A stretch of DNA of 63,810 nt, filler included. It is 6 parts of 6 records of this genome, joined end to end, with 100 filler letters (N's around TTAATTAATTAA, not from the genome) between each part and the next. Parts side by side here need not be neighbours in the genome. Positions count along the whole stretch, not along the records: positions 29,243 to 47,237 come from SRR31156797_6792; 5 more parts are not named here. One strand, given 5' to 3'. The notes under the pieces were generated by a model, which was not told the DNA's origin, searched no databases, and worked only from the letters and a program-made list of their open reading frames with translations. Below are positions 30,516 to 49,052 of the stretch, one piece after another. Position 1 is the stretch's first letter; each line of letters opens with the position of its first letter. A program made the position numbers and the translations under genes.

Positions 30516-31376
30516 ATGGCAAAATATACTTTTTCGGGACATGAAACCTTTTACTGCAGACATTATTGGCTGAAAAAAGGTTATGATTTCTTAAGAGAAG
30601 GCAATAAATTTAGTGATGATAATGCAGTTACAAAACTTGGTGTAGGTAAAAATATGGTTACCTCCATCCGATTTTGGATTCGTGCATTCGGCATCATTAA
30701 TGAAAACAAAGATGGTGAAAATAATCAATTGACTAGTGAATTTGGGGATAAAATATTTGCGGACAATGGATTTGACCCATTTTTAGAAGACAGTAATTCT
30801 TTGTGGCTACTACATTATCATTTAGTAAAAAAGAAATATGCTTCCATTTATCATTTGTTTTTTAATAAGTTAAAAAATGGAAGTCGTGAATTTAATGATG
30901 ACAGAATAAAAAAAGGAATCGTATATCTTACCGAAGAGCATAATCAAGAGAGACCAAGTGATAAAACTTTAGATAGTGATATTAAAGTTTTTAAAGCTAA
31001 TTACATGCAACCTAAAAGCCCAAAGAATATAGAAGATGAATTCATGGGATTGCTTCAGGAACTTCACCTTTTTGAATCAAATAAAAATATTGTTGTTGAC
31101 AATACTGATAGAGATGAGATTTCGGAAGAGCTATTTTTGTATTGCCTTTTAGATCGATTTGAGGGAGAAAATTCTATTTCAGTTGAAACTATTTTAAAAA
31201 CTGAAAATAGCCCTGCACTCATATTCTGCATAACAGAACATGGTGTTATTAAAAAGTTAAAAAAAATAGAAGAAAAATATGATTCAATCATATTTTCTGA
31301 AAACTCAGGAGTAAGAGAATTGCAGTTACAAATGCCACTAAAAAAGTGGGAAATTTTAGGAGATTATTATGGATAA
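30516..31376 (+). CDS. DUF4007-family protein, SspB-like
   Basis: Family-typical N-terminus FSGHETF..R..WLKKG, LGVGKNMV.SIRFW, DPFLED..SLWLLHY; first gene of the DUF4007-ATPase-PAPS reductase operon. Confidence 0.85.
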   Translation: MAKYTFSGHETFYCRHYWLKKGYDFLREGNKFSDDNAVTKLGVGKNMVTSIRFWIRAFGIINENKDGENNQLTSEFGDKIFADNGFDPFLEDSNSLWLLHYHLVKKKYASIYHLFFNKLKNGSREFNDDRIKKGIVYLTEEHNQERPSDKTLDSDIKVFKANYMQPKSPKNIEDEFMGLLQELHLFESNKNIVVDNTDRDEISEELFLYCLLDRFEGENSISVETILKTENSPALIFCITEHGVIKKLKKIEEKYDSIIFSENSGVRELQLQMPLKKWEILGDYYG

Positions 31377-34300
31377 TAAAAACTATTCACCTTCTGTAAA
31401 TATTATTAGAGATAAGGATATCTCCTTGAATTATATCGTAACACCAAATGCAGAACAAGTTGCTAAATCTATCGCAACGGGATATAATGAAACAGGACAT
31501 TGCTTTAACATTATTGGTTCTTATGGAACCGGTAAATCAAGTTTTATATGGGCTTTAGAACAAAATCTAAATAGAAAAGAGGAGTTCTTTTTTCAATCTG
31601 GAGAATATTTCAATGAAGCAAAAGATTTTGATTTTATTAACTTAATAGGTTCGTATTCTTCTTTAACGGAAAGTTTAGGGAAACATTTAGGTACTGAATC
31701 AAATAAAGGAAAAGATGTTCTTAGTGCATTAGACCAATATTATTTAAAATGTAAGAGCGAAGGAAAATTCCTATTTATTGTTATTGATGAATATGGAAAG
31801 TTCTTGGAATATTCAGCAAAGAATGACATTGAAGAAAATATCTATTTCATACAGCAACTTGCTGAATATGTAAATGATCCAAAACGAAATATTATTCTTC
31901 TAACCTCATTACACCAAAGTTTTTCTCAGTATGGTTCCGCGCTTAATAGAAAAGAACAAGATGAATGGCAAAAAGTAAATGGTCGATTCATTCATATTAC
32001 TTTTAATGAGCCTGTGGAACAATTGCTTTATTTGGCTGGAGAGAGAATTAAGCAATGGAAGTTTGAAAAAAGCAAACTGGATGAAATTTCATCGATTAAT
32101 CAGGCGATACTAGATTCTAAAATTATAAAAAATTATGCCAATTATGATTTAGATTACGCTTCGGCATTGTATCCGATGGACTTGGCTTCTGCCAATTGTC
32201 TTACTCGCGCATTACAATCATACGGGCAAAATGAGCGTTCGTTATTTACTTTTCTGAACAGAAAAGAAGCTAATTCGTTGTATGATTTTGCTAAGAAATC
32301 GAAGTGGTATAACCTGAACAAAGTCTATGATTTTTTAGTACAAAACTTTTATGGCGCTATTATTAGTAGTAGTAATCCTGACAAAAATGGATGGGACGCC
32401 ATAAGAATAGCCTTGGAAAAGGTAGAAACTGGTTTTACCAAAGACATTAGACTTGCTGAAAAGTTGGTTAAAACTATTGGTTTATTAAGTATCTTTTCAT
32501 CCCAAGGTGGGAAAATCAATCCCGATTTATTACTAGCCTACTTCTTTGAAAATGATAAAAAGAAAGTCGAGAGTATACTAAAGCAATTAGAGCTAAAACA
32601 AATCATTCGTTACAGAGAGTTTTCGGAAAGATTTATTCTTTTTGAAGGAACAGATTTGGATTTTGACAAAGCGATGCTAGAAGCTGCTGTCAAGGTTACA
32701 AAATCGAATGATATTTCCAGACATTTAGAAAAATATTATCAGTTACCTGTTTTACTTGCTAAGTCTGTTAGCTACACCAGAGGGACTCCAAGATTTTTTG
32801 CTTATAAAATATCGGATACTCCACTTGCTCAACAAGCAAAAAGTGAATTGGATGGGTATGTTAATTTGATTTTCACGGAGCAAAATGTAACTGATAAAAT
32901 CAAAGATGTAAGTCTAAAATATCCAAGTAATCTTTATGCCTTCTTTAATAGAACTGAAGAAATTAAAAGCATACTTTGGGAAATAGATAAAACAGAATAC
33001 GTAATCAATGAAAATTCTGAAGATCTTGTTGCTTGTAGAGAATTGGAAAACCTAAAAGAAAAACTTGAAAATGATTTAAGTAAAGAGGTTCTCAATAATT
33101 TAACAAGTGAGAATGTAAGCTGGTATAGAAGTGGGGAAAGCATTTTAATTGAATCACAAAAAGAATTAAATCGAGAACTATCGAGAATTTGTGAGGATGT
33201 TTATCATCAGACTCCTACTCTTCGAAACGAACTCATTAACAGACACAAAGTTAGTCCTGCAATTGCAACTGCTCGAAGAAATTATATGCGTGCATTAATT
33301 CATCATTCGGATCAAGTAGATTTAGGATTTGCAGCCCATAAATACCCTGCAGAAAAAACAATCTATTTAAGTTTACTAAAGGACACTCAAATTCATCAAC
33401 ATTTCGCAGAAAGTAAATGGGAATTTGAAGCTCCTGATGAAGATGGTGTATTTCATGGTTTGTGGCAAAAATCAATGGAAATTCTAAATCGAGCTAAACA
33501 AGAAAAAATTAATCTGCAGGTATTTTACGATGAATTTTCTACAGCGCCTTTCAAGTTAAAAGATGGATTCCTTTCCTTTTGGATACCAAGTTTTTTGCAT
33601 ATTCAGCAAGATAATTTCGCTTTATTTAATAGCAAAGGTTATGTACCCTTCTTAACAGAAGAAGTTTTTGAACTCATTCAGAAAAGTCCGAAAGAATATA
33701 GCCTTAAAACATTTTCGGTTGAAGGGGTTAAGCTAAACTTACTGAATACATATCGTACTTTAATTAATAAAAAGCACGAAATAAGTGGAAAAAGATCTGT
33801 TTATATAGAAACGATTCGACCCTTATTTGTTTTTTACAGGGAACTACCCGATTATACAAAAAGAACAAAAAACTTGCCGATTGAGGCAATTCAGTTCCGA
33901 GAAGCTATTGCCAAGGCTCAGGACCCAGAAACAGCTTTTTTTGTAGATATACCAAAGGCATTAGGATATTCGGGACTAGACTTAAAAAATGAAAACATAG
34001 ATTTAGATGATTATACTCTTCAGTTAAAATCTGTGATAAGAGAATTGCGAGAATGCGAGCAAAATTTGATTGAACAAGTAGAAGATAAGTTTAAGAAAAT
34101 TGTAGGTGCATCAAATAGACCTTTTAAAGAATACAAAAATCAGCTAGAGACTCGATTCGATGATATAGACATACAAATCATCCCTCCTCATTTGAAGAGG
34201 CTGTTACAGAAATTTAGAATGCCTAGCTCAAAAAAATCTGATTGGATAAAAAGCATTTACAATAGTTTGTTCAATAAAAATTTCTCAGAGATCAGAGATG

Positions 34301-34581
34301 AAGAAATTTCTATATTTATTACTAAATTCAAGAAATCGTTTCAGCAGTTAGAACGATTGGTTGATATTCACAAACTAAATACTACTCGAAGTTATGAAAG
34401 TGTTTATGCAGTAGATATCATTGACCAAACTGGTACTGTAAAACAAGAACGAATTGTTTTTCCAGAAGAAGTTTCAGATGTTTACCTGAAATCTGAAAAT
34501 GAGATTGAGAAACTCATAAAGAAACTACAACCAGAGGAACAAAAGGCTTTACTATTGAGAAAACTTCAGGAATTAATATAG
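31369..34581 (+). CDS. Large P-loop ATPase, SspC-like
   Basis: SVNI.RD N-terminus, Walker A GSYGTGKSS, Walker B IVIDEYGKFLE, QNERSLF.FL; 8-nt overlap with the DUF4007 gene. Confidence 0.8.
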   Translation: MDNKNYSPSVNIIRDKDISLNYIVTPNAEQVAKSIATGYNETGHCFNIIGSYGTGKSSFIWALEQNLNRKEEFFFQSGEYFNEAKDFDFINLIGSYSSLTESLGKHLGTESNKGKDVLSALDQYYLKCKSEGKFLFIVIDEYGKFLEYSAKNDIEENIYFIQQLAEYVNDPKRNIILLTSLHQSFSQYGSALNRKEQDEWQKVNGRFIHITFNEPVEQLLYLAGERIKQWKFEKSKLDEISSINQAILDSKIIKNYANYDLDYASALYPMDLASANCLTRALQSYGQNERSLFTFLNRKEANSLYDFAKKSKWYNLNKVYDFLVQNFYGAIISSSNPDKNGWDAIRIALEKVETGFTKDIRLAEKLVKTIGLLSIFSSQGGKINPDLLLAYFFENDKKKVESILKQLELKQIIRYREFSERFILFEGTDLDFDKAMLEAAVKVTKSNDISRHLEKYYQLPVLLAKSVSYTRGTPRFFAYKISDTPLAQQAKSELDGYVNLIFTEQNVTDKIKDVSLKYPSNLYAFFNRTEEIKSILWEIDKTEYVINENSEDLVACRELENLKEKLENDLSKEVLNNLTSENVSWYRSGESILIESQKELNRELSRICEDVYHQTPTLRNELINRHKVSPAIATARRNYMRALIHHSDQVDLGFAAHKYPAEKTIYLSLLKDTQIHQHFAESKWEFEAPDEDGVFHGLWQKSMEILNRAKQEKINLQVFYDEFSTAPFKLKDGFLSFWIPSFLHIQQDNFALFNSKGYVPFLTEEVFELIQKSPKEYSLKTFSVEGVKLNLLNTYRTLINKKHEISGKRSVYIETIRPLFVFYRELPDYTKRTKNLPIEAIQFREAIAKAQDPETAFFVDIPKALGYSGLDLKNENIDLDDYTLQLKSVIRELRECEQNLIEQVEDKFKKIVGASNRPFKEYKNQLETRFDDIDIQIIPPHLKRLLQKFRMPSSKKSDWIKSIYNSLFNKNFSEIRDEEISIFITKFKKSFQQLERLVDIHKLNTTRSYESVYAVDIIDQTGTVKQERIVFPEEVSDVYLKSENEIEKLIKKLQPEEQKALLLRKLQELI

Positions 34582-35760
34582 ATGGCAAAAATTAAACATG
34601 TACTGGGAATTAGCGGAGGAAAGGACAGTGCTGCCCTCGCCATATACCTGAATAAATTATACAGCAAGAAAGATCTTCCTATTGAATATTACACTTGTGA
34701 TACTGGTAGAGAATTGGCTGAGACTTATGTTCTAATTGAACAATTGGAACATGAGTTACAGATATCTGTAAAAAAGTACCAGGATAAAAATTACCAGAGT
34801 ACTAATGAGGATAATCCGTTTGACTTCTACTGGAAAAAATACGGAGGCTATCTGCCTGCACAAAATGCAAGATGGTGTACAAAAAGTTTAAAACTCGCAC
34901 CGTTTGAATCTGAGATTGGAGATACTCCAGCTATTTCGTATGTTGGAATTCGAGGAGATGAAGACAGAGAAGGTTATATTTCGACCCGCCAGAATATTCA
35001 ATCTATTTTTCCATTCCGTAGAAATATTTGGAGTGTAGATGTTATCAATAAAGTATTGCACAATTCTAAAATTGATGAAGTTTCGGAATATTACCAAAAG
35101 CATCTAGATGGAGCTGTACTTGATAAGGTCATAGAAATTGTGAAACAAGAGATTTCGCCTTTTTTCTCCACCAGACAAAAGCTAGATGCTTTACTTGATG
35201 TTCATGTTATTGGATTTAATAAAGTTGTTTTTGATTGGTTAAAAACAACTGACTACCCAGTAGGACAGTTGGATTATTTTCCTTTGGTTGAAAATGAAGA
35301 TATTTTAGTTCGACAAGACATTTTTGATTTGATTGAGGAAAGTAATGTGGATTTACCCAATTACTATCTACCAAGGGAATATGAAGTGGATGGTGAAAAG
35401 GGAAAATACTTTAGAAGTAGATCTGGCTGCTTTTTCTGCTTTTATCAGCAAAAGATAGAATGGGTTTGGCTATTAGAACAGCATCCGCATTTGTTCCAAG
35501 AAGCAATGAAATATGAAAAAGATGGTTACACTTGGATACAGGGTGAAAGCCTGGAACAGCTATCTGAACCTGAACGAGTAAATCGCATAAAAAGAGAACA
35601 CCTTAAGCGTATGAAGAGGCGTTATGAAAATCTGCAGACTAAAACAAGTTGGCAAGATGATATTTTAGGAGTGAAAAAGGAGAAGAATTCAGCTGATCCG
35701 AATTGGTTAGATGAATTGTTGGATGCTGAGGGTGATGGTTGTGCAAGTTGTTTTATTTAG
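34582..35760 (+). CDS. PAPS-reductase-family ATP pyrophosphatase/sulfurtransferase, SspD/DndC-like
   Basis: PP-loop SGGKDS, DTG.E, RWCT..LK..P, GIR.DE, RSGCFFC, C-terminal CASC; starts immediately after the ATPase stop. Confidence 0.85.
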   Translation: MAKIKHVLGISGGKDSAALAIYLNKLYSKKDLPIEYYTCDTGRELAETYVLIEQLEHELQISVKKYQDKNYQSTNEDNPFDFYWKKYGGYLPAQNARWCTKSLKLAPFESEIGDTPAISYVGIRGDEDREGYISTRQNIQSIFPFRRNIWSVDVINKVLHNSKIDEVSEYYQKHLDGAVLDKVIEIVKQEISPFFSTRQKLDALLDVHVIGFNKVVFDWLKTTDYPVGQLDYFPLVENEDILVRQDIFDLIEESNVDLPNYYLPREYEVDGEKGKYFRSRSGCFFCFYQQKIEWVWLLEQHPHLFQEAMKYEKDGYTWIQGESLEQLSEPERVNRIKREHLKRMKRRYENLQTKTSWQDDILGVKKEKNSADPNWLDELLDAEGDGCASCFI

Positions 35761-35802
35761 TAATAATTATTGTTTTTTATAAATACTAACCCTATTAAAA
35801 CG

Positions 35803-36597
35803 ATGGATACTTATTTAAAGATTTTCACATGCAAATTGACCGTATATACATTAATAGTTATCCTATTGATTATTCTTTCATTATGGATTTTTGGTACGGA
35901 TAACCAGTTATTATTGGTCGCAATCTCTATTGGAACTTCGGTTTATGCTAGTTTTTTAGTGGGAGCATTCTTTCAAAACCTAATGAAAGAAGAATTCTCT
36001 AAGGAGCATTTTCAAATAATGCAGCATAAAGATGCATTTAATGAATCAGGAATAATACAATACAGTGGCAGCTTTAGTGATATATTAGATGACCTTAGAT
36101 TGACTGTTGCTGATTCTAAGGAGGTGACAATATATATAGCTTATGGTAGAACCGTTCTTAGTAACCTAAAGGAATCCATAAATAAACTACTAAATACAAA
36201 AGACACTACTTTAAATATTTATCTGCTAGATAAGGAAAATCCTTTTGTTAATGCATATGAAAAGCTATGGGGATATGGAGAAGGCAAATTATCTACATTA
36301 ATTGATGATTCAAATGAACTATTGGTAACTAAGATTAAAGAATTAAAAGAACAAAATGAATTGAGAGGTAAATTACACCTCTATTCCAATAAGAAATATC
36401 CAATCCATTCATCTTTTTACATCTGTGATAATGTTATTTATTTTGTACCGTCGAAACATAATGGATCAAGGGATTTCGTGCCACAAGTAGTTAAAGCTCA
36501 AAAGACGATCAATAAAAAATCACTTTTTAATAAAGTGACAAAGGACCTTGAGGAAATGAGAAAGAATTGTGAGCTAACAGCTTATAAAGAAAATTAA
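35803..36597 (+). CDS. 2-TM protein with cytoplasmic PLD-fold-like (DUF5919-like) domain
   Basis: Two N-terminal TMs, then an alpha/beta pattern (SKEVTIYIAYG, LNIYLLD.ENP, LHLY, FYICDN.IYF); ATG at 35803; the domain call is inference. Confidence 0.55.
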   Translation: MDTYLKIFTCKLTVYTLIVILLIILSLWIFGTDNQLLLVAISIGTSVYASFLVGAFFQNLMKEEFSKEHFQIMQHKDAFNESGIIQYSGSFSDILDDLRLTVADSKEVTIYIAYGRTVLSNLKESINKLLNTKDTTLNIYLLDKENPFVNAYEKLWGYGEGKLSTLIDDSNELLVTKIKELKEQNELRGKLHLYSNKKYPIHSSFYICDNVIYFVPSKHNGSRDFVPQVVKAQKTINKKSLFNKVTKDLEEMRKNCELTAYKEN

Positions 36598-36599
36598 GT

Positions 36600-37136
36600 A
36601 TGAATATTTGTTTTATAGATTTTGAGACTACAGGTATAGATGTATTTAAGGACAACCCTGTTGAATTTGGAGCTGTATTAGTAAATGAAGAGCAGGAAAT
36701 AATAAAGGAATTTCATTCCTTTATTACATTAAGAACTAAAAGAAAATTTTCTGCGCAATCAAAAGCAATACACGGATTAGATGAAACAAATTTAATTGAT
36801 AGTTGTGAGCAAAAAGAGATGTTGGTTCGATTTTTTGATGAATTTGGAACTAATTATCGATTTGCTGGTTGGAATATTAATTTTGATGTTTCATTTTTTC
36901 GCAGAATGTGTCACCTGAACAATTTTATGCGAGAGTATAATAAAATTTATCATCGACATATTGATGTCCAATCTATCTCCTATTTTTTATCACAGAAAGA
37001 GATTTTACCTGACAGGGAAAAATCGTTGAGTGATTTGGTTGATATATTTGACCTAGAGAGAAGGGAAAAGCATAGTGCAATTGAGGATGCTCGGTTAACT
37101 TTTGAGGTATATAGGAAATTAATGGCTATCGGGTAG
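36600..37136 (+). CDS. DEDDh 3'-5' exonuclease (DnaQ-like)
   Basis: ExoI IDFETTG, ExoII N..FD, ExoIII HSAIEDA. Confidence 0.9.
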   Translation: MNICFIDFETTGIDVFKDNPVEFGAVLVNEEQEIIKEFHSFITLRTKRKFSAQSKAIHGLDETNLIDSCEQKEMLVRFFDEFGTNYRFAGWNINFDVSFFRRMCHLNNFMREYNKIYHRHIDVQSISYFLSQKEILPDREKSLSDLVDIFDLERREKHSAIEDARLTFEVYRKLMAIG

Positions 37137-37147
37137 ATAGCCATTAA
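37119..37147. terminator. Hairpin at the junction of convergent operons
   Basis: TTAATGGCTATC-GGGTA-GATAGCCATTAA, a 12-bp perfect stem overlapping the exonuclease stop. Confidence 0.55.
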
Positions 37148-37180
37148 AAAGCAATGTTAAGTATTGAAAATAAGGAATAA

Positions 37181-38434
37181 TTATTTTTTATATTTTATAC
37201 CAAGTTTATCCAAAAGTCCTGTTTCAGAAGCAATATCGTATGTTAGTTTAGATAAGGGACGTTTACTGAATTCGTTAATATTAATATAATTGCCTAATAT
37301 TAATCTTGCAAAATCTTTAGTTTGAAATAGTTTATTTGAATCTTCATTAATATTTTGGATGTGATCAATTTTTATTCTATTTAAATCATCAAGTCTATCT
37401 TTATTATAAAGAAATGATTTCAAAGAGATTTCCTCAACACAATCAGAATGAAATGCATACAGTTCATTTATTTTAAAAGTTTGGATTGTTTTGTTTGTTT
37501 TTGATCTCATTTCTTCAGAAATATTATCACGCACCTTTATTTCATAATTTATTTTTCTATTAAACATTGTTAACTCTTTGACTTCTTTAATTTTTGATGG
37601 AATTATTACAAATTCTGCATATTTATGAAAAGAATCAATATATGGATGAATATGAGGTTCCGAAAAGAAGTCAAAATCATTTTTCAAATCTGAATTACAC
37701 ACATGACAACTTGGAATTAAATTGCCAATGGATAACGCTAAAAAAGGATAAATTGATTGAGGGTAAAAATGATCTAAAGCAGGACGCGTACTAGCATCTT
37801 TAGTATTGAGAAAATTGATGAAATTCCTGTTGCAATATGGACAAACGCTAATTTCTATCGCTTCAACAAGAGCATATGCTCCCCAACCTACTTTACTTTT
37901 AGAAAAACTTTTGTAATTGAAAATTTTGAATAGGCGACTTTCAAAATCTGATACTTTAATTCTTTTTGCATCATCTTTCAATTTTTTCCTAAGATTTTCT
38001 TTAGTTGTTTTGTTTGCTTTATTATTATATACAGCTAAAGCTTCTTCTGAATCTGAATGTATGCTAATATAAAGTTTTAGGTTGCTTATTATTTCACTTA
38101 TTTCATCATCTGATACATTTTCAAAATTCTCTTTGTTATTTAAGGTTAATTTTATTTGCCTAATTAAAGTAGTATCTGAAGTGTTATTAATACCGTGATA
38201 AAGCGTGATCCATTCTTTTAAATCCCAATTTTTAGGATGTCCAATTAAAATATTTTTAAGAATTGCATTATCGTTCTCAATTAGATAATTGTAAAAATTC
38301 CTTTCCGAAGCATCTATATTTTGGTCTCTTGAATAATTAATTAAATTCCTATAACCAGATGATTCGAAAAAAAAATTTAAGTGTTTATTTAAAGATTCTT
38401 GTTGAATAAAATTTAATTTAATCATAAGCTTCAT
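37181..38434 (-). CDS. HNH endonuclease, PtuB (Septu)-like
   Basis: CPYCNR...LDHFYPQS.YPFLALS..NLIPSCHVCN; overlaps the upstream ATPase by 17 nt. Confidence 0.8.
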   Translation of the reverse strand: MKLMIKLNFIQQESLNKHLNFFFESSGYRNLINYSRDQNIDASERNFYNYLIENDNAILKNILIGHPKNWDLKEWITLYHGINNTSDTTLIRQIKLTLNNKENFENVSDDEISEIISNLKLYISIHSDSEEALAVYNNKANKTTKENLRKKLKDDAKRIKVSDFESRLFKIFNYKSFSKSKVGWGAYALVEAIEISVCPYCNRNFINFLNTKDASTRPALDHFYPQSIYPFLALSIGNLIPSCHVCNSDLKNDFDFFSEPHIHPYIDSFHKYAEFVIIPSKIKEVKELTMFNRKINYEIKVRDNISEEMRSKTNKTIQTFKINELYAFHSDCVEEISLKSFLYNKDRLDDLNRIKIDHIQNINEDSNKLFQTKDFARLILGNYININEFSKRPLSKLTYDIASETGLLDKLGIKYKK

Positions 38435-40370
38435 CTATTTTCATTAATTGATCATGATGCCATTGCTTAATTTGCTCTAGCCCTTCTTTAGTTAATTTAT
38501 GAGTATTTTGAATAATGATTTCGTGCATTTTTAAACGTATCATATCGTCTCCTATTTTATCAATAATAGTCATAAAACTATCTATATCCTCGGCGTTAAG
38601 ATTACTCTTTTTATCAGTAAGCCTATGTAGAATTTGATTTAGTTTACTGTTTGCAAATTCACCCAGAGTTCCATCCTCTAAGAAAAAGTGTTTATTAAAC
38701 AACATATAAATATTAGATCCAAAAGTATTTTTTTCTGTAAAATAATTTACCACCTTTTCTTTACCATCTGAATCTTGAATATTTTTAAGGAGAATTAGAT
38801 TTTCTTTTGGTAAATCAGCCACTAAAAAAGGTGAATGGGAAGTTAGAATTAATTGAACATTTTTATCTATGAAGATTCTATTAATAAAACCCATAATATC
38901 ATTTAAAAAGCATCTTTGCATTTCTGGATGAAAATATAGATCGCCTTCGTCAATACATATTAATACATTCTTATTTTTTACTTTGGAAATATTTGCAAAA
39001 ATATTTGAAAACAGATTTAGGTATGCTTTCATACCTGAACTAAGCTTAGCCCAATCGTGCTTTATGATTTTTATTTCGTTGAAAATCGAACAGTAATCAT
39101 CTAATTTAGAAATTAAATGATCATTAAACTTAAAAATAATACGATTACTAGAGCTACCTTCTTCTTTTTTGATTTTACTAATTTCATTTTTTTGAGGATA
39201 GGTGATCTCTAAAAGATTTAGAATGTCAGCCCATATTTTAAATTTTTTATCGAATAATTTTATATCTATTAGTTTAATAAACTTATATACAATTGGATTT
39301 AAAATATTAATAGGTTGTTCTGCAACTTTTCCTTTAGAATCTTCAGAAATTAGAACTTGGTATAATATCAAGTCAATAACATTAATATTGTATTTCTTAA
39401 GTAAATGTTGATTAAATTTACTTTTGTCGTCATCCCCTAAAATAGTATTTACCTTTAAGTCCTGAATGACTTCATGATCAAGTATTTCTTCAATTATCTC
39501 TGAATCTAGCTTTTGTTTTACTTCTCTTTTGTATTGCAAAGAAAACAAATAGGTAAAAACTGAATAGATAAGAGCGTAATGTAATGCATTAGTATCAGAA
39601 GTAAGTAAAGCTCTATAATATCTTCCTTTGAGACATTCGTAATTTTCATAAAGAAAATCTTTTTTAAAAGAATCGCTTATTAACTTCTCAGATTCAATTG
39701 TACACTCAAACAATAGATTATCCATATCTAATCTTGTCTCTACAGAACTGAGCTTTGCTCCTGGAGATTTCTTCCTTGAATATAAGTCTAATAAATAGTC
39801 TATTTTATTTGCTTGATTCTTTCTGTTTGTTTCGTATGATAAGTTACATACCTTATCGTTTCCATCGAATGAAAGTTCTCTACCATCTGAAACATTTGAG
39901 TAGAAAACACAATCCCAATATTTTTCAGGATCTTCGGATTTTTTCAACTCTGTTCTATTAAATATCTTTGCAGTAATCTTAGGTTTATTATAGATTATAT
40001 CGAGTTTATTCCAGATAAAAAACTCATTGTTATCTTCAAATATAAAAAAATAGCGACCTAATAAGTTTCTTCTTCCCGATACTATTGAGGTACACAAAAA
40101 ATCTAAGATATTACTTTTACCCGTGCCATTTTTTCCTATGATAGCCGATATTTCCTTAATTGATGTACCAAAAAAATTTGGTATATATTCATTGCTTTTT
40201 GCTATTGAAATATGGCAATCTTTATAGATTTTTTTATCTCTTGATTCCTTTTTAACAGGTTTTTTAATAGTTATTGATGGATCGAATGTTACAGTAAATT
40301 GACTTGAAAAATTTATTCCTATACTTGACATGTTTCTGTATTCGTCAATCCAAGCATATATTAATTGCAT
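38418..40370 (-). CDS. ABC/AAA_21-type ATPase, PtuA (Septu)-like
   Basis: Walker A GKNGTGKS, signature LSSG, Walker B/D-loop IDEGDLYFHPEMQ, H-loop TSHSPF, TFGSNI. Confidence 0.8.
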   Translation of the reverse strand: MQLIYAWIDEYRNMSSIGINFSSQFTVTFDPSITIKKPVKKESRDKKIYKDCHISIAKSNEYIPNFFGTSIKEISAIIGKNGTGKSNILDFLCTSIVSGRRNLLGRYFFIFEDNNEFFIWNKLDIIYNKPKITAKIFNRTELKKSEDPEKYWDCVFYSNVSDGRELSFDGNDKVCNLSYETNRKNQANKIDYLLDLYSRKKSPGAKLSSVETRLDMDNLLFECTIESEKLISDSFKKDFLYENYECLKGRYYRALLTSDTNALHYALIYSVFTYLFSLQYKREVKQKLDSEIIEEILDHEVIQDLKVNTILGDDDKSKFNQHLLKKYNINVIDLILYQVLISEDSKGKVAEQPINILNPIVYKFIKLIDIKLFDKKFKIWADILNLLEITYPQKNEISKIKKEEGSSSNRIIFKFNDHLISKLDDYCSIFNEIKIIKHDWAKLSSGMKAYLNLFSNIFANISKVKNKNVLICIDEGDLYFHPEMQRCFLNDIMGFINRIFIDKNVQLILTSHSPFLVADLPKENLILLKNIQDSDGKEKVVNYFTEKNTFGSNIYMLFNKHFFLEDGTLGEFANSKLNQILHRLTDKKSNLNAEDIDSFMTIIDKIGDDMIRLKMHEIIIQNTHKLTKEGLEQIKQWHHDQLMKIDEAYD

Positions 40371-40384
40371 ATTATTCTTGTATT

Positions 40385-40412
40385 AAAAAAGCTACTCCGT
40401 GAGTAGCCTTTT
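40385..40412 (-). terminator. Intrinsic terminator of the desulfurase-Pbe-like operon
   Basis: - strand AAAAGGCTACTC-ACG-GAGTAGCTTTTTT. Confidence 0.7.
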
Positions 40413-40490
40413 ATGTATTAATAATTTTCAGCGTCTTAAATAGTTTTACAAAACAACTCTCAGTAAATCAATGCAAAACACATTTATACT

Positions 40491-41039
40491 TTAAACTGAT
40501 AAAATCATTTTGTGATCTTCGACAGCTTCACTAACCTGCTGAACTTTTTTAAGAAACCATCTTTTCTCATTGAAGACAATCTTGTCAGTTTCGTATTGCT
40601 CCTGAAGCATTAATAAACCAGCATTGGTGTATTCAGCAAATTCTTCTCTTAATTGTCGAGCTCCTTTTTTAATATCATTTTCTTCAGCATTCTCCAGAGC
40701 TATGAAATCCAGATCCGTTTTAGCAACTAGAGCCATGAATATGTATCGCTGTAAGACTGTATAATCTTTACGATCGTATTGTTTTCCCTTTTTACCCCAA
40801 TGCTTAATTTCATGACTAAAATCGATTCTTTCACCTTCAATTGGAATGCGAGAGTTGCCGTATAAGCCTAGAAAAAATGCATAGATATACAGCTCATAAT
40901 TATTACTAAAAATTTTACCTGCATCTTCCTTGCCTTCTTCCGTACCGCTACCTTTCCTGGATAACTTAACAAATAAAGGTTCGTATATTTTATCGTATTT
41001 GGGAGCTTGTGATGCCCATCTATCAAAAAGTTCGTCCAT
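40491..41039 (-). CDS. Hypothetical protein in the PbeD position (phosphorothioation-associated)
   Basis: 182 aa; F..NYELYIYAFFLGL and EYTNAGL motifs; directly follows the SMC-like ATPase; assignment by gene order. Confidence 0.55.
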   Translation of the reverse strand: MDELFDRWASQAPKYDKIYEPLFVKLSRKGSGTEEGKEDAGKIFSNNYELYIYAFFLGLYGNSRIPIEGERIDFSHEIKHWGKKGKQYDRKDYTVLQRYIFMALVAKTDLDFIALENAEENDIKKGARQLREEFAEYTNAGLLMLQEQYETDKIVFNEKRWFLKKVQQVSEAVEDHKMILSV

Positions 41040-41042
41040 TTT

Positions 41043-43205
41043 CTATAAATTAATAATATGAGAGTCGACAGTACTCATCTCTTCAGGGTTAATATTCTGA
41101 TCTAATTTCACCCAAAATCCTTTATCTTTTTTGATTTTATTAAACCCTTCACCAATAATGAATTTACCATCACCAGAGTCAACAAGAAAATCTTTGGTCA
41201 TTATGATACTTTGCTCGAAATTTTCACGACACAGTCTATAAAACTCTATTGATTTAGCCAGGTCGAATTCAGAAGTTGGTGCATCAAAAATCATTGGCAA
41301 AGCTTCTCCTGAATTCTTAATTGACAAGTCAGAAATAGCCATTAGGATAGAGATATTAATAGAAGTTTGAGTCGAACTACTTAATGTATGAGTGATGTCT
41401 ACATCAGAGTCTACGTCAATGGTCTTTATAATTATACTATTATCACCACTTCTTTTGATTCTGACAGAACCTGTAAAACCGGAACTAGCATCACCAAATT
41501 TCTTGTAATATTCGTTGGTTTTTATTTCGAGTTCGTTGATGAATTTATCAAAGACATCTTCTCTAACCTCTTTAGTGATTCTTTGTAAGTCGCGGAGCAT
41601 GCTGGTTTTAATATTTTCAGAATCTAAACCTTCTTCAATATTAATTCTATCAATTTTATCCTGTATTACGGATAACTCCATTTTGAAATCTTTAATATCT
41701 TCTTTATTCTTTGATATTTTTTTCTCTAAACGAGGAATGTCGATATTATACTCTCGAATACTAGTTGCTGCATCAAGAATTGTTTCTTCACCAGCATTAC
41801 TTTTATTAATTATTTTAGCACGCTCTTCTTCAAACTTATCAATGCCTTTTTGCTTCTCTACAATTCTCATTTTCAGCAAATCGAGCATATCATAATTTTC
41901 CAGAATCTCTTTCCCTATTATTGAATTATTGATGTTCTTTCGCTTTTTACTCATCTCATTATTTAAAGCTCTCAGTTCATCAATAAAATCATTTTTAAAA
42001 GCTTCTTTCGATTCTTCTATTTCAAGGTCTTCAGGCGTATAATATTCGATAAACTTCTTAAGTCTTTCTTGCATATAATTATAAGCATCAGAACCTTTCA
42101 ATGCTTCTCTATTACACACCTTACACAACTCTTCCTCAAGCATTTCTTCCATATGCTCTTTGGTAGGTGCACCTATCGGAAGAGGTGTTCGAGTTTTTGT
42201 TAATTCGTTTAATAATTCTTTTTTGCCTTTCAGCTTCCCTTGCTCCTCATCGAACTGCTTAGTTAACACTCTCTTTTTTCTACTCAAAGAGTTCACCTTT
42301 TTCTCGAAAGCATCCTGCACTTTATCAAAGGACATTAAAAGCCATTTAGAATCAAATAAATCAACAGTGAAATTAGAGTAGTTATTGTATTTGAATTGTA
42401 AGTCTGATCTCTCTTTTTCGAAATTTGTAATCTTACTATTCACCTTTTGTAGCTGGGGTCCCGACTCGATAAAAGATATATTATCTTCCATTCGTTTACG
42501 TATCTGATAAAGTTCTTCGTCGGCACTTCTGTTTTTAGCCTCAAGATCTGATATTTTATTGTGCTTATAATCTCTGTCTTGAATTAAACGGTTGTATTCT
42601 TTTTGTTGTTTATTATTTGATCTTACTCTTCTATCTAAAACTTTTGTATGTCTCGAATAAGCTTCTTTTGCGATATCAACATAGGTATCAAGCGTACGAA
42701 AATCAGATAGTGCATTTACTAAATTTAATAATGCATCTTTATTTTCTTTAGGGTCGAATATATTTAGAGATCGTTCACCTTTAAAAAGTGAATATTTTCT
42801 TAAAATAGTAGGAAATAGACTATCTAACAATTCTTCTCCATTGGCAGGTATTCTGTCTCCATTATCATTATCAACTAAGCCCGTACAAGTCGATTTAGTA
42901 GCTTGAAACTTGTTGCCAATTTTAGACACCTCAAATGATCGTTGAACTTGATAAACCTTTCTATTTCTTTCACATGTAAATCTGACAGCAACAACAAAGT
43001 CAAGATTATTTGCTTTGGCTTTTTCTGAAATTAACTGTTCACGATTATGATCTTCACCATTCAAAAGCCAATTAATACCATCAAACAGTTTACTTTTACC
43101 ATGTGCGTTAGCTCCCAAAATAATATTCATTCCCTTCTCGAACTTGAATATTTTTCGACCGTAATAGCATTGGAAATTTTCTAATTCAACCTCTTTAATA
43201 ATCAT
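41043..43205 (-). CDS. SMC/Rad50-like coiled-coil ATPase, PbeC/DndD-like
   Basis: I..V.LENFQCYYG, Walker A GANAHGKS, LFKGE, long coiled coil with central CKVC zinc hook, LSSS signature, MIFDAP Walker B. Confidence 0.8.
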   Translation of the reverse strand: MIIKEVELENFQCYYGRKIFKFEKGMNIILGANAHGKSKLFDGINWLLNGEDHNREQLISEKAKANNLDFVVAVRFTCERNRKVYQVQRSFEVSKIGNKFQATKSTCTGLVDNDNGDRIPANGEELLDSLFPTILRKYSLFKGERSLNIFDPKENKDALLNLVNALSDFRTLDTYVDIAKEAYSRHTKVLDRRVRSNNKQQKEYNRLIQDRDYKHNKISDLEAKNRSADEELYQIRKRMEDNISFIESGPQLQKVNSKITNFEKERSDLQFKYNNYSNFTVDLFDSKWLLMSFDKVQDAFEKKVNSLSRKKRVLTKQFDEEQGKLKGKKELLNELTKTRTPLPIGAPTKEHMEEMLEEELCKVCNREALKGSDAYNYMQERLKKFIEYYTPEDLEIEESKEAFKNDFIDELRALNNEMSKKRKNINNSIIGKEILENYDMLDLLKMRIVEKQKGIDKFEEERAKIINKSNAGEETILDAATSIREYNIDIPRLEKKISKNKEDIKDFKMELSVIQDKIDRINIEEGLDSENIKTSMLRDLQRITKEVREDVFDKFINELEIKTNEYYKKFGDASSGFTGSVRIKRSGDNSIIIKTIDVDSDVDITHTLSSSTQTSINISILMAISDLSIKNSGEALPMIFDAPTSEFDLAKSIEFYRLCRENFEQSIIMTKDFLVDSGDGKFIIGEGFNKIKKDKGFWVKLDQNINPEEMSTVDSHIINL

Positions 43206-43210
43206 ACTAC

Positions 43211-43429
43211 TTAATCGTTTAATGTTTTTAATAGCGTACTTGCAACTTCATCTTTAGAACAATTTTGAATCTCTACAGATTTAACCATTGTTCTAATAAT
43301 TTCAACCATTCTACAATTTGTTGAAGGACCTACTACTAATAAGTCATTTGAACTATTATCAAAGTCATACTTCTCTTTTATTAAAGGATGAGAAAGCATC
43401 GCATTAAGGATTTTATCTTTTTTAGTCAT
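43211..43429 (-). CDS. Small protein in the PbeB position
   Basis: 72-aa ORF; ATGACTAA 8-nt overlap with the helicase stop and 5 nt from the SMC start. Confidence 0.6.
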   Translation of the reverse strand: MTKKDKILNAMLSHPLIKEKYDFDNSSNDLLVVGPSTNCRMVEIIRTMVKSVEIQNCSKDEVASTLLKTLND

Positions 43430-45641
43430 CGCTATTTATATTATCATTAATGTTGAACAAGTTGAGTTTAAACTTTCTGCAGATATCATCGAGCACTTCG
43501 AAAGTGTGGTATTTATTATTAGCTAGAAATGAGAAATTCACAACTCGCTCTAACTCTTTCTTCACTATATTTTGCTGCATTCGAAAGTTGATTTCTGATT
43601 CTTCATTCAAATTAGGAACTACAATTAAATCGTGAATGGTAGCAAAATTTTTACCTTCTGCTTGACGAAGAACTCTACCTCTACGCTGAATAAATTGTTT
43701 TGGATTACCTGTACTAGCACAAAAGAAAGCTAATTCTGTTTGTGGAATATCAACCCCTTCATCCAAACATTTCATAGATATAAGCACGTTAATTTCACCT
43801 GCTGAAAATTTACCTAAAATCTCTTTTCTATTTTTTGTATTAGAAGTAAACTGAGACACTGTCAGCATCTTATCGATATCACGCACTTCTTTTGTGAACT
43901 GCTTAAGTATATTTATATGAAAATCAGGTTCATCTTGTATCTCTTCGTCAACATCTCCTTCTGGAGCATAAACTAGTGCATTTCTAAGATGTCCTCTCTT
44001 ATTATATTCATCATTTAATATTTGCTTAAACTTTGGTAGTTTATTTTGGGCTTTATGAATTATTCTCTTTCTTTTTTGAAGAAGAATCTCAACTATCTCA
44101 TTTTTCGCATAGCTATTTTTATCAGCATCATAAAATTTTGCCAGCTTCTTTGATATCTTATCGTATTCTTCTAATTCTACTTCAGAAAGATAAACCACAT
44201 GAGGATAATAGTAATATTCACACAAAACACCATTATCAATAGCCTGTTTCATTGTATAAGAAAAAGTATATGGAGGATAGGAATTGAAAAAATCTCTAAT
44301 TTTTCCATTCCCATATTCATCGTATTGCCTTTCGAGAGTAGCAGACAGACCTATTCTTTTCTGCAGCATTATATTGGGTAAGAACTTAAGCAAACTGTTA
44401 CTTCCCATATTATGGGCTTCGTCTGCAATTAAGATACCATTGAACTTACTAATATATTTTCTGAATTTTGGACGAACAAGAGAATTGTAGGTTACAATAA
44501 CGATAGTTGAATATTTTTGACCTAAAGATTTTCTAAAGAAATAATCCGTTAAATCTTCTTCCCATTTATTACCACCTCCTACTTTAATAACATTATTGAA
44601 GTTAAACTTTGCACATTCCTCGGCCCATTGTTCGACTAATGCAATTGATGGCACTAAAATTAAAGCATTGTAATAGCCTGTTTTTTGACACTCCTCTAAA
44701 ACACAATTTAAAGACGTTATTGTTTTACCTGTACCAGTTGCCATATCAAAAATTCCTTGACAGGAATTCTCTAACCAATTTTTGTATGCTTGAGCTTGAT
44801 ATTCTCGAGGACCAGTAGGGTATGGAAATCTAGGTTGGTTTTCTAATTTAAAGAGTTCCTTTTCTAAATTTTGAATTTTTTTCTTGGTGCTGGAATTACT
44901 ATTGGATAAATATTTTTCTTTTTGAGAAAGAACTAATTCATCCTTAATAAGATCAGGCAAATCTTTATTGCCGAATTCATTTATTAATACTTCCTCTATT
45001 TCAGAAGCATTGAGATATTCAATGTAGTTTGCATTTTCAGAAAAGATATCATCAAATTTTACTTGGTTTTCTTTTACTGCGTATTGGTCTGAATCGTCCC
45101 AGGAGAATTTCACTCCGATTTCTTCTAAGTTATTGAATAGTGCGTTCGCAGTAAAATTGCATGATCCTTTGAATAGAATATTGTTTTTGCCATCAGAAAA
45201 AACTCCTGATTTATAATGTGCGATACCTGGACTATCTTTAGGTTTTATAATTTTTATTTCAATTCTTTTTTGAGCAATTAACCAGGCTATACAATTAAAG
45301 AAGTGCTCACCAGCTTCTGTAAGATTATTCTTTACATCCTTTATTGATAATTCTTTCCCATAGAATTCTTGTGGCTCCATCGAAAGACCATTAACAATTG
45401 CTTGTTTGTCTTCTTTACGGAGAAATTGGTTGATTGCCATGCGCATGTGACCACCATTTGCCAAGAACTTTGTAAATCCAAACGCCAATACATTTATTGC
45501 GCTAGAACTAAAATATCCAAGTAATAAATCAAACTGCTTACTATTGGAAAGTGCATCTAAATAAAATCCGATTGGTTCATGAGTGGTTCCTGACGAATAC
45601 TCTTTTGATAAAGGATAGTTTATTGATTTTAGGTTACACAT
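43422..45641 (-). CDS. PLD-nuclease + SF2 (DEAH, ResIII-like) helicase, PbeA-like
   Basis: GYFSS, HYKSGVFSD...GSCNFT (HKD-type PLD); PREYQ, MATGTGKT, DEAH, SAT, EGVDIP, QRRGRVLR. Confidence 0.85.
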   Translation of the reverse strand: MCNLKSINYPLSKEYSSGTTHEPIGFYLDALSNSKQFDLLLGYFSSSAINVLAFGFTKFLANGGHMRMAINQFLRKEDKQAIVNGLSMEPQEFYGKELSIKDVKNNLTEAGEHFFNCIAWLIAQKRIEIKIIKPKDSPGIAHYKSGVFSDGKNNILFKGSCNFTANALFNNLEEIGVKFSWDDSDQYAVKENQVKFDDIFSENANYIEYLNASEIEEVLINEFGNKDLPDLIKDELVLSQKEKYLSNSNSSTKKKIQNLEKELFKLENQPRFPYPTGPREYQAQAYKNWLENSCQGIFDMATGTGKTITSLNCVLEECQKTGYYNALILVPSIALVEQWAEECAKFNFNNVIKVGGGNKWEEDLTDYFFRKSLGQKYSTIVIVTYNSLVRPKFRKYISKFNGILIADEAHNMGSNSLLKFLPNIMLQKRIGLSATLERQYDEYGNGKIRDFFNSYPPYTFSYTMKQAIDNGVLCEYYYYPHVVYLSEVELEEYDKISKKLAKFYDADKNSYAKNEIVEILLQKRKRIIHKAQNKLPKFKQILNDEYNKRGHLRNALVYAPEGDVDEEIQDEPDFHINILKQFTKEVRDIDKMLTVSQFTSNTKNRKEILGKFSAGEINVLISMKCLDEGVDIPQTELAFFCASTGNPKQFIQRRGRVLRQAEGKNFATIHDLIVVPNLNEESEINFRMQQNIVKKELERVVNFSFLANNKYHTFEVLDDICRKFKLNLFNINDNINSDD

Positions 45642-46798
45642 TAGTCAATAATATTTTTTAATAAAGTTATTGACTGCTTTATCTCTTCTTGTGTTGTTGA
45701 CTTTCCAAAACTAAAACGCAAACAATTTTCAGCATCAGAATTTGCCATCCCCAAGCCTCTCAAAACATGAGAAGGCTCAACAATTTGAGTTGTACATGCG
45801 GAACCTGTAGAGAAGAATAATTTATCTTTTAAAGGGAAAATAATTTCCTCACTATCGTTATTTAAGAAATGGATATTTGAGATAAATGGAGAACGATTTG
45901 CTTCTTTAGCCACAACGGCAATTTTTCCTGTTTTCAAAAGTTCACTTTCAAACTCCTCTTTTAATAGAGTCATTCGTTCATACTCTGAATCTCTTTTACC
46001 TTTTAATAATTCAGCAGCTTTTCCTATTCCTACAATACCAGGTACATTTAAGGTTCCGGATCTTAGATTTGTTTGTTGACCTCCACCATGAATCAAAGGA
46101 ATTAGTTTTTCGTTCTTTCGAATTAATAAGGCTCCTACTCCCTTAGGTGCATACATTTTATGCCCCGAAAAAATCACAAAATCAGGAGAAAACTGCTCTA
46201 AATTCACTTCTAGTTTTCCTACAGCTTGTGTAGCATCACAAAGAAAACTTACTGATTTCCTCTTACATATTTCAGAGATTTTCTCAGTATCATGAATGAC
46301 TCCAGTTTCATTATTTACAGACATTAAGGCAACTACAAGAGTTTTTTCATTAATCGATTTTTCCAGATCTACTAATGAAATATTGCCATTAATATCTACC
46401 GGAAGATATTCGATTTCTGCTCCAAGGGTTTCCAAATACTCACAAACCGATAAAACTGCCTTGTGCTCTGTTTTACAGGTAATGATTTTATTCCTGCTAT
46501 TACCATAAAGCGCAAAGAGGCTTTTTAATGCCGTATTAATCGATTCTGTTGCTCCACTAGTAAATATTAGATTGTAATCCCAGGCATTCAACAAATCCTT
46601 AATTTGCTCTTCTGCTTTCTTAATAGCATTAGTCGCAGATTGACCAATTGCATTAATAGCGTTTGATGGATTGCTATATATTGTAGTGAAATATGGTATT
46701 ATCTCATTAAGTACCTCTTCGTCTACAGGAGTCGAAGCTGCATAATCCAGATAAATAGGTCTTTTATTTGACATATACAATTTTACTTTAGCTTTCAC
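45641..46798 (-). CDS. Cysteine desulfurase, IscS group (SspA/DndA-like)
   Basis: YLDYAASTP, SGATES, EHKAV, DATQA, PLP Lys SGHK, RSGT, catalytic GSAC; TAATG overlap with the helicase start. Confidence 0.92.
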   Translation of the reverse strand: MKAKVKLYMSNKRPIYLDYAASTPVDEEVLNEIIPYFTTIYSNPSNAINAIGQSATNAIKKAEEQIKDLLNAWDYNLIFTSGATESINTALKSLFALYGNSRNKIITCKTEHKAVLSVCEYLETLGAEIEYLPVDINGNISLVDLEKSINEKTLVVALMSVNNETGVIHDTEKISEICKRKSVSFLCDATQAVGKLEVNLEQFSPDFVIFSGHKMYAPKGVGALLIRKNEKLIPLIHGGGQQTNLRSGTLNVPGIVGIGKAAELLKGKRDSEYERMTLLKEEFESELLKTGKIAVVAKEANRSPFISNIHFLNNDSEEIIFPLKDKLFFSTGSACTTQIVEPSHVLRGLGMANSDAENCLRFSFGKSTTQEEIKQSITLLKNIID

Positions 46799-47097
46799 TA
46801 AAGTAAGAAAAACACATTTAAAAACAGAGAATCTATGAGTATTAAAATATATTGAATCATTAACTCAACTACACAAAGAATACCTATAATGCTTATAATA
46901 ATACATATACGATACTGCTTGTCAAATTTTGCCAAATATGTCAAGTTTTGTCATCTGATTATAGAAATGCATATTCCTAAAACATTCTATCAAATTCAAA
47001 CTAAATCTGTCTATACATATTGTTTGACTTCTTAGAATATTTTAACTTTAGTATTATAAATAATAATTGATTGTTAAATCAGTAGTTTAGTAAGAAG

Positions 47098-47237: not shown

Positions 47238-47337
47238 NNNNNNNNNNNNNNNNNNNNNNNNNNNNNNNNNNNNNNNNNNNNTTAATTAATTAANNNNNNN
47301 NNNNNNNNNNNNNNNNNNNNNNNNNNNNNNNNNNNNN
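47238..47337. other. Artificial contig linker
   Basis: N44-TTAATTAATTAA-N44. Confidence 0.99.
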
Positions 47338-47654: not shown

Positions 47655-47668
47655 TCCACCTCACCGCT

Positions 47669-48979: not shown

Positions 48980-49020
48980 AAATGATTCCTCCTCTCCCTT
49001 AATAAATCTCTCGCGTCCAC

Positions 49021-49052
49021 AAAAAAAAAGGGCCGCAAATTTCAGCAGCCCC
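49021..49052 (-). terminator. Leader terminator 2
   Basis: - strand GGGCTGC-TGAAATTT-GCGGCCC followed by T9. Confidence 0.7.

Follow-up and report, generated by a model that had tools for sequence, protein, structure and literature searches.

The window analyzed here is a stretch of DNA of 63,810 nucleotides. Between positions 30516 and 46798 it carries an island of 12 genes, organized as two convergent operons with a gene pair inserted at their junction. The island is probably a phosphorothioate (PT) defense unit of two operons, whose Ssp-type writer and PbeABCD effector are functionally coupled. Writer and effector are each known, but we have not found their combination described. The gene content of both systems is present, the catalytic motifs are intact, writer and effector genes are fused in one operon, and the same linkage recurs in other genomes. 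A sequence-only reading had listed eight of these genes, and all eight are intact, lie where it placed them, and belong to the families it named (PADLOC, Pfam, and motif evidence). Family matches and motifs bear out its assignment of the desulfurase, DUF4007 protein, ATPase, and PAPS reductase to the SspABCD set. Its assignment of the helicase/SMC module to PbeABCD also holds, by model matches for PbeA and PbeC, by family membership for the 182-aa protein, and, more tentatively, by position and size for the 72-aa protein. That reading had passed over four genes of the island, encoding a 275-aa protein, a DEDDh exonuclease, PDC-M62A, and PDC-M62B.

Characterized Ssp systems place single-strand PT at a short motif, CpsCA. 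Judged by family matches, the SspABCD PT modification gene set appears complete in the island. On the plus strand, sspB and sspC overlap by 8 nt, sspC and sspD abut (0 nt), sspD lies 9 nt before the gene for the 275-aa protein, and 2 nt separate this gene from the DEDDh exonuclease gene. SspC also matches BrxC (8.4e-77 in PADLOC) and has Walker A GSYGTGKS at residue 50 and Walker B FIVIDE at residue 136. SspD carries the PP-loop SGGKDS at residue 11 and CxxC motifs at 283 and 387. The desulfurase SspA has the pyridoxal phosphate-lysine motif SGHK at 211 and the catalytic-cysteine motif STGSAC at 330, and its scores are not separable from those of DndA or NifS/IscS models (PADLOC, NCBIfam). SspA is presumably the dedicated desulfurase, because its gene overlaps pbeA by 1 nt and holds the same position in relatives. 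A desulfurase gene lies immediately before pbeA in the window, in loci L002, L003, and L005, in eight Ssp-linked metagenomic loci, and in L034.

The minus-strand operon continues from sspA into the effector genes; pbeB and pbeA overlap by 8 nt, and gaps of 5 nt (pbeC/pbeB) and 3 nt (pbeD/pbeC) separate the others. PbeA also matches the NCBIfam model TIGR04095, “DNA phosphorothioation system restriction enzyme,” at 2e-124, under that model's cut-off. Its nuclease motif (H142-x-K144...D150, with GSCN at 159) is invariant in 8/8 orthologs, and its helicase motifs are I (GTGKT, 303), II (DEAH, 407), and VI (QRRGR, 652). In PADLOC, LmuB outscores PbeC for the window ATPase. Among its orthologs, PbeC is the best model in L002 (5.6e-33) and L005 (2.8e-24), and LmuB is marginally ahead in L001 and L004. 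The ATPase has Walker A GANAHGKS at 31, the hook motif CKVC at 361-364, and Walker B MIFDA at 638. Hook cysteines C361 and C364 are invariant in 9/9 PbeC orthologs, and the PbeC-family profile matched Rad50/SMC heads among solved structures (PDB).

The two small proteins of this operon and the 275-aa protein had no PADLOC match even at E up to 10, and no Pfam family. A small ORF (open reading frame) of 70–107 aa occupies the pbeB slot in every complete locus examined. Proteins from this slot share 13–30% identity with one another, and the profile of the 72-aa protein, a candidate PbeB, reached an hhalign probability of 48% against distant PbeB-slot proteins. The 182-aa protein belongs to the PbeD family, and so the minus-strand module appears to be a complete pbeABCD. 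TIGR04062, “DNA phosphorothioation-associated protein 4,” was matched by 24/43 of its relatives (best 4.6e-9) and no other family was. Its family profile aligned to PbeD-slot proteins of distant Pbe loci with an hhalign probability of 93% (E 3.3e-7); this set combined two divergent Bacteroidota loci with plasmids of haloarchaea, cyanobacteria, and alphaproteobacteria. A Ruegeria plasmid has annotated dndB-C-D-E genes together with a desulfurase gene, and there a TIGR04062-named gene directly follows the ATPase of a pbeA/small ORF/ATPase array, and a Pseudanabaena plasmid has a TIGR04062-named gene in the same kind of neighborhood. Some PbeD homologs carry a precomputed PF27807 assignment. The nearest named homolog of the 182-aa protein, from an uncultured Marinifilum, is 74% identical.

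Table 1. Genes and other features of the Ssp-Pbe island and its edges, in window positions.
Feature	Position	Strand	Evidence
sspB, DUF4007 DNA-recognition/nicking subunit of PT writer	30516..31376	+	PADLOC SspB 1.7e-90; Pfam DUF4007 8.3e-77, full length
sspC, large BrxC-like ATPase	31369..34581	+	PADLOC SspC E = 0, 1145 bits, model positions 1-1037 of 1039
sspD, PAPS-reductase-family sulfur transferase	34582..35760	+	PADLOC SspD 1.4e-82; Pfam PAPS_reduct 4.5e-8
sspA, cysteine desulfurase, first gene of pbe operon	45641..46798	-	PADLOC SspA 3.9e-130, DndA 2.7e-128; Pfam Aminotran_5 3.5e-78
pbeA, HKD (PLD-family) nuclease fused to SF2 DEAH helicase	43422..45641	-	PADLOC PbeA 4.7e-291, full length; PLDc_2 and ResIII/DEAD/Helicase_C
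72-aa ORF in pbeB position	43211..43429	-	Position and size; no family match
pbeC, zinc-hook ABC ATPase, 720 aa	41043..43205	-	AAA_23 2.2e-12; PADLOC LmuB 1.3e-20, PbeC 3.2e-10
pbeD-family small protein, 182 aa	40491..41039	-	NCBIfam TIGR04062 9.1e-4; hhalign; slot
275-aa protein, no known family, two N-terminal hydrophobic segments	35770..36597	+	Adjoins sspD; PADLOC, Pfam, NCBIfam without match
DEDDh (DnaQ/RNase T-like) 3'-5' exonuclease, last gene of plus operon	36600..37136	+	PADLOC DEDDh 3.1e-23; Pfam RNase_T 1.7e-21; NCBIfam 3'-5' exonuclease 3.6e-17
PDC-M62B, PtuB-like HNH nuclease	37181..38434	-	PADLOC PDC-M62B 5e-73; NCBIfam PtuB 9.5e-9
PDC-M62A, AAA_21/AAA_15 ABC-type ATPase	38418..40370	-	PADLOC PDC-M62A 5.6e-73; PtuA, AriA families ~1e-15; Pfam AAA_21 4.5e-16
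Hairpin at convergent junction, likely terminator	37119..37147	.	12-bp stem, minimum free energy -17.6 kcal/mol, z = -4.2, 0/200 shuffles fold as well
Promoter-like site ~100 nt upstream of sspA	46898..46925	-	TTGACA-16-TATTAT, 11/12 matches; weak; sigma-70 consensus may not suit Bacteroidota

This arrangement recurs in other genomes. Close PbeA relatives among species-representative genomes came from a Cytophagales metagenome-assembled genome (MAG), Sediminibacterium salmoneum, a Bacteroidales MAG, a Prevotella MAG, and Prolixibacteraceae bacterium JC049. SspB/C/D lie within 10 kb of pbeA in 4/5 of these loci; the fifth, truncated 1.4 kb beyond pbeA, has sspA-pbeA. PbeA and SspC models were run on 401 evenly sampled Bacteroidota genomes. 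PbeA was present in eight genomes and SspC in 15 (16 loci), and they were adjacent in six (odds ratio 128, Fisher p = 2.4e-8). The helicase/SMC module thus does co-occur with SspBCD homologs in the Bacteroidota, and with adjacency in 6/8 of the PbeA-bearing genomes the partnership proposed by the sequence-only reading is backed by conserved linkage. Same-strand arrays with abutting or overlapping genes occur in L002, L004, G124, G289, G329, and plasmid CP099618.1. Among plasmid records, 27 had a PbeA relative and 45 an SspC relative, and one had both. This plasmid, CP099618.1, is from the Sphingomonadaceae (alphaproteobacterial) and carries a one-strand array beside an integrase: desulfurase, DUF4007 protein, 1100-aa protein, PAPS reductase, helicase, 74-aa protein, AAA ATPase, and 148-aa protein, which we read as sspA-B-C-D-pbeA-B-C-D.

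With a ten-sequence PbeA alignment as query, metagenomes yielded 592 pattern matches, 216 of them relatives. The best 80 of these 216 were classified with custom hidden Markov models; 19 were Ssp-linked, 12 were Dnd-linked, and 49 were neither (41 of these 49 on short contigs). When at least 8 kb upstream or at least 12 kb downstream was available (28 loci), the counts were 14 Ssp, 6 Dnd, and 8 neither. Because adjacency recurs across genomes, a plasmid, and metagenomes, the Ssp-Pbe link in the island is not a single accident.

Seen from the writer, Pbe is the commonest recognizable partner of SspC in the Bacteroidota sample, at 6/16 loci. The other 10 loci have 127 ORFs of 100 aa or more, and a scan of the 51 neighboring ones found SspG and SspH at two loci, an SspH-like fragment at one, DndB-like genes at two, a helicase-only module at three, and nothing recognizable at two. 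SspE is a DUF262-DUF1524 protein, and none was found at E <= 1e-12 among the scanned neighbors at these 10 loci. The SspE model (PDLC02783) gave weak partial matches in only two of the five relatives' genomes (31 and 22 bits). DUF262 proteins occur in all five of these genomes (14 places), and the two that lie inside the loci are NsnA-like by PADLOC.

Within the window, Pfam was run on 36 ORFs (23 on the island's contig) and PADLOC on 24 ORFs. No SspE, SspFGH, DndC, DndD, DndE, or other Dnd gene was found on the island's 47.2-kb contig, counting the 12 island proteins and the other ORFs. The remaining ORFs of this contig had generic domain matches only in Pfam and PADLOC, and nothing else PT-related. 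The sequence-only reading had likewise recognized no SspE, DndB, DndE, or DndFGH gene, and this absence stands for the 47.2 kb only, because the window consists of two joined contigs.

The roles of the proteins can be proposed from their families and from work on haloarchaea, where PbeABCD requires PT made by DndCDEA to block a virus (Xiong et al., 2019, PMC6459918). SspA would take sulfur from cysteine, and SspD, a PP-loop ATP pyrophosphatase, would hand it on. SspB (DNA recognition/nicking) and the SspC ATPase would then put sulfur into the DNA backbone of the host chromosome. PbeC, the zinc-hook ABC ATPase, may load on DNA with the small PbeD and scan it, and PbeA would translocate and damage or stall DNA that its PT status identifies as foreign. 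The small and fast-evolving PbeB may modulate the Pbe complex. The position of sspA at the head of the pbe operon would couple the supply of sulfur for marking to effector expression. The 275-aa membrane protein and the DEDDh exonuclease may be lineage-restricted accessories of the writer operon, and PDC-M62A/B may be an unrelated Septu-like system dropped into the junction, with no part in Ssp-Pbe. From the linkage and by analogy with the haloarchaeal Dnd-Pbe system, we infer that Pbe reads the Ssp mark. PT would be made by the locus and Pbe would depend on it, either with PT protecting self or with PT licensing the effector.

The SspABCD-SspE system was reportedly described by Xiong and colleagues in 2020, and CxC ABC ATPase-DndE systems are said to have been described by Krishnan and colleagues in the same year. 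Compared with the characterized SspABCD-SspE and SspABCD-SspFGH systems, the island has the same writer set and sspB-C-D order, with the desulfurase gene apart from sspBCD as in those systems (PMC8092258), but pbeABCD takes the partner position held there by SspE or SspFGH. The DndCDEA-PbeABCD system of Haloterrigena jeotgali A29 shares with the window the order of HKD/helicase PbeA, a small protein in the PbeB position, zinc-hook PbeC, and small PbeD, and its effector also lies beside a PT writer that includes a cysteine desulfurase (PMC6459918). The two differ in the writer, which is DndC/D/E in A29 and of the Ssp type in the window (DUF4007 SspB, BrxC-like SspC, and SspD), and the window host is a bacterium (Bacteroidota). 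SspBCD thus occupies the place of the Dnd genes to which the characterized Pbe system is linked. The PbeA HKD motif is intact in the window, whereas PMC6459918 states that there is no nuclease active site in the PbeA of A29. PbeC and PbeD of the window are very divergent from those of the A29 system.

The CxC ABC ATPase-DndE systems are the same module under another name, and Pbe has been equated with them (Rakesh et al., 2024, PMC10853773). They swap partners (“mix and match”), with or without modification genes, as here. The partners named in the available main text are DndD-centered PT modules, C5/N4 cytosine methylases, and MTaX1, and not SspBCD (PMC10853773). In BREX type 4 (BrxP/BrxC/PglZ/BrxL; 10.1101/2024.06.03.597175, PMC12839542), the BrxP C-terminal region is matched by the window SspB and BrxC by the window SspC (PADLOC), and SspD orthologs of related loci match BrxP weakly. 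Unlike BREX type 4, the window has no PglZ or BrxL, its writer genes are separate and not fused, and its effector is Pbe. In the available text of the literature found, including BREX papers and a 2025 review (PMC12707154), Dnd is the sole partner given for Pbe, SspE and SspFGH are the only ones given for Ssp, and the term “pbe” is absent from that of Wang et al. (2021, PMC8092258). We found no description of the Ssp-Pbe pairing in the literature; the supplementary tables of PMC6459918 and PMC10853773 may list such loci.

Comparison of related loci points to a partnership that has changed over time. A maximum likelihood tree of SspD from 21 loci has two long branches that make some placements unsure. 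Over 11 linked loci, SspD and PbeA distances are correlated (Mantel r = 0.74, p = 2e-4). Two sspBCD copies in genome G329 share 95.6% identity over 5413 nt (L012/L013, contig C1 ~748-760 kb; L028); pbeABCD follows one copy, and the other faces sspG and sspH, a characterized Ssp effector. The window and JC049 (G005, locus L005) resemble each other from ~40 nt upstream of the sspB start; their flanking genes differ, and no flank synteny was found between the two. Identity between them is high in SspD (90%) and in PbeA residues 1–180 (82–95%), and intermediate in SspA (66%), SspB (60%), SspC (57%), and the helicase part of PbeA (35–60%). These steps suggest a mosaic locus with cassette exchange and a breakpoint inside pbeA.

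Several observations weigh against functional coupling of the two modules. Pbe-linked loci are scattered on the SspD tree, with eight label changes (at least five forced by well-supported branches), which is no better than shuffled labels; the Ssp-Pbe partnership has therefore been made and broken repeatedly. The correlation of SspD and PbeA distances comes partly from shared ancestry. PbeB/C/D of the window (40491-45641) and JC049 (L005 9998-15151) are 26–27% identical, and because SspD is 90% identical between these close relatives, the effector core appears to have been exchanged independently of the writer. In the 401-genome sample, G052 and G404 have Pbe and no SspC in the genome, and 8/28 informative metagenomic Pbe loci have no Ssp or Dnd writer, in a metagenomic sample that leans to relatives of a query alignment made mostly of Ssp-linked members. 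The SspE/SspFGH negative for the window's organism spans the 47.2-kb contig out of a whole genome. The literature found holds no experiment or PT measurement on any Ssp-Pbe locus, in agreement with the sequence-only reading, which knew of no experimental characterization of the pairing. CxC/Pbe systems have also been argued to be able to act alone (Rakesh et al., 2024, PMC10853773).

Taken to their conclusion, some of these points favor an autonomous PbeABCD, for example of an abortive-infection type, that merely shares an island with a solitary epigenetic or separate SspABCD module. Pbe without a PT writer in G052, G404, L070, L073, L079, L085, and L095 would fit this explanation, as would the scattered partner labels, the exchange of the pbeBCD cassette independently of sspD, and the unrelated inserts in the same loci (PDC-M62 in the window; NsnA-like and SIR2-like genes in L002 and L005). 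Whether Pbe is a restriction arm dedicated to PT has been questioned (Rakesh et al., 2024, PMC10853773). Flanking genes of the writer-less loci include a type IIG-like N6 methylase (L073), DndB-like genes (G404, L073), and large sigma-r4/alpha-CTD-like proteins (L070, L095), with nothing recognizable at G052. We nevertheless consider independence unlikely, since several lineages and a plasmid have fused operons with overlapping codons, sspA sits inside the pbe operon as its first gene, the two modules occur together much more often than chance would give, and Pbe depends experimentally on PT in haloarchaea (PMC6459918). A coupling of another kind, in which PbeCD acts on the modification side like DndD-DndE and changes where or how Ssp places PT, seems very improbable. 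PbeC does belong to the DndD/CxC ABC ATPase assemblage, its orthologs match DndD in PADLOC (5.7e-20 in L002, 1.4e-11 in L005), and PbeD has been called a DndE cognate (Rakesh et al., 2024, PMC10853773). Against it, SspBCD alone suffices for PT in characterized systems (PMC8092258; BREX type 4 preprint 10.1101/2024.06.03.597175), dndCDEA by itself confers modification in the haloarchaeal system (PMC6459918), and PbeA has an intact nuclease-helicase. The reported PbeD-DndE similarity (PMC10853773) was not reproduced here: both PbeD alignments gave an hhalign probability <1% against a six-sequence DndE alignment, a comparison of shallow profiles with low power. Searched against PDB sequences, the PbeD-family profile matched no DndE and had only a chance-level Cas11c match (E 0.33).

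We give least credence to a PT-dependent effector other than Pbe, be it PDC-M62A/B or the DEDDh exonuclease together with the 275-aa protein. Both sets bear nucleases and lie between the two operons, and the second is tightly coupled to sspD; yet PDC-M62 has no homolog in the related loci examined, JC049 holds different cargo in the same slot, and the 275-aa/DEDDh pair is rare. Among the genomes and plasmids, 3/11 loci linked to Pbe have this pair (the window, L005, and G397); it was found in 0/80 metagenomic loci and in 0/10 other Ssp loci. The preferred explanation is still an Ssp-type writer functionally coupled to PbeABCD.

A broader idea, which we hold tentatively and think somewhat doubtful, is that PbeABCD is a writer-agnostic effector chassis that could read single-strand Ssp marks, double-strand Dnd marks, or methylation. 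Its reading block would be the helicase end of PbeA with PbeB/C/D, swapped as a cassette. Consistent with this, one PbeA clade has Ssp at nine loci, Dnd at four, and neither at six. The conserved nuclease head and SspD versus the diverged helicase end and PbeB/C/D, in the comparison of the window with JC049, point the same way, as do the near-identical sspBCD copies of G329 that accompany Pbe in one place and SspGH in the other.

The remaining genes of the island lie around the convergent junction. Hydropathy of the 275-aa protein peaks at residues 15–52, and homologs follow sspD in L005 (59–60% identity) and G397 (29%); the exonuclease is 89–90% identical in L005 and 45% in G397. In relatives, the pair spans L005 18609-19933 and L018 7660-9064. 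The two proteins could process nicks during PT insertion or form a separate small module. The two PDC-M62 genes overlap by 17 nt, and 120 nt separate pbeD from PDC-M62A downstream of it. The pair has the composition of the PDC-M62 candidate system (an ATPase followed by an HNH-type nuclease) and is predicted to be Septu-like. No homolog of either gene was found in any related genome or metagenomic locus examined. In JC049, the junction slot is filled by an NsnA-like DUF262 gene and two others (L005 15158-18594), and in Sediminibacterium (L002), sspD and sspA are separated by NsnA-like and SIR2/ThsA-like genes (6971-8863). Other defense genes seem to use the interior of Ssp-Pbe units as a landing site. 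No tRNA or Rfam family match was found in the island region.

The two contigs of the window are joined at 47239-47337 by an artificial linker, consisting of N runs around TTAATTAATTAA, a six-frame stop. GC content is ~30% to the left and ~50% to the right of this joint. The left part (1-47238) has Bacteroidota-type genes, including a type IX secretion system-tailed C25 peptidase, at ~30% GC. The right part (47338-63810) has type II/IV secretion genes at ~50% GC and may come from another organism of the same bin. The island's contig ends ~440 bp upstream of sspA. Contigs of the probable source run cover the stretch exactly, and pieces ~90% identical to the pbe-sspA segment are present in contigs of other sequencing runs. 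A 165-aa ORF at window positions 16891-17388 is the Lon protease C-terminal proteolytic domain alone (Lon_C 5.4e-54), either a fragment or a stand-alone domain.

Related loci had other gene arrangements. A large protein of ~890–1030 aa is encoded directly upstream of pbeA in L070 (7042-9930), L095 (7339-10008), and L114 (8768-11848), and not in the window; it matches sigma-70 region 4 in L070 and L095 and RNA polymerase alpha-CTD in L095, and has a sigma-factor-like annotation in L114. At Pbe-less SspBCD loci L020 (1614-7278), L021 (2314-7140), and L024 (12855-18423), there is a helicase of ~515–550 aa with weak matches to the PbeA helicase and type IV restriction endonucleases. A ~640-aa protein accompanies it in L020 and L021 (with a weak MzaB match in L020 only), and a desulfurase is present in L020 as well; in L024, the proteins preceding the helicase are instead one of 750 aa and a NERD-helicase-like one. 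This helicase set may represent another, still unnamed partner of Ssp. Loci with a divergent Ssp-like writer, whose SspD-like protein is long (~540–590 aa), are L055, L058 (at least this one a human-gut metagenome contig), L061, L065, L072, L075, L076, L078, and L100. The long protein sits before sspB or after sspC, and a desulfurase and pbeA then follow in most of these loci.

Two published puzzles meet in the Ssp-Pbe pairing. For about 84% of sspBCD loci no restriction partner is known (2211/2678 lack sspE or sspFGH), and further partners have been proposed (Wang et al., 2021, PMC8092258). In a survey that predates the description of Ssp, over half of the PbeAC loci were counted as having no PT writer: pbeAC lies beside dndCD in 235 bacterial genomes, and 320/553 PbeAC are without dnd genes (PMC6459918). 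Annotation pipelines appear to list the two modules as separate systems (“PT_PbeABCD” is its own system name in a preprint). Because the modules seem to be reported separately and PADLOC ranks the ATPase LmuB above PbeC, the link is easily missed. Gut and environmental metagenomes and a proteobacterial plasmid carry the pairing too, and Sediminibacterium salmoneum NBRC 103935 and Prolixibacteraceae bacterium JC049 are cultured, non-pathogenic carriers. Ssp-Pbe offers a direct test of whether one effector family uses chemically identical marks placed on one strand at a 3-nt motif versus both strands at a 4-bp motif. If PbeABCD is indeed a writer-agnostic chassis, Ssp-Pbe would explain part of the “orphan” sspBCD and “solitary” PbeAC loci, and there would be a mechanism able to read PT without marks on both strands.

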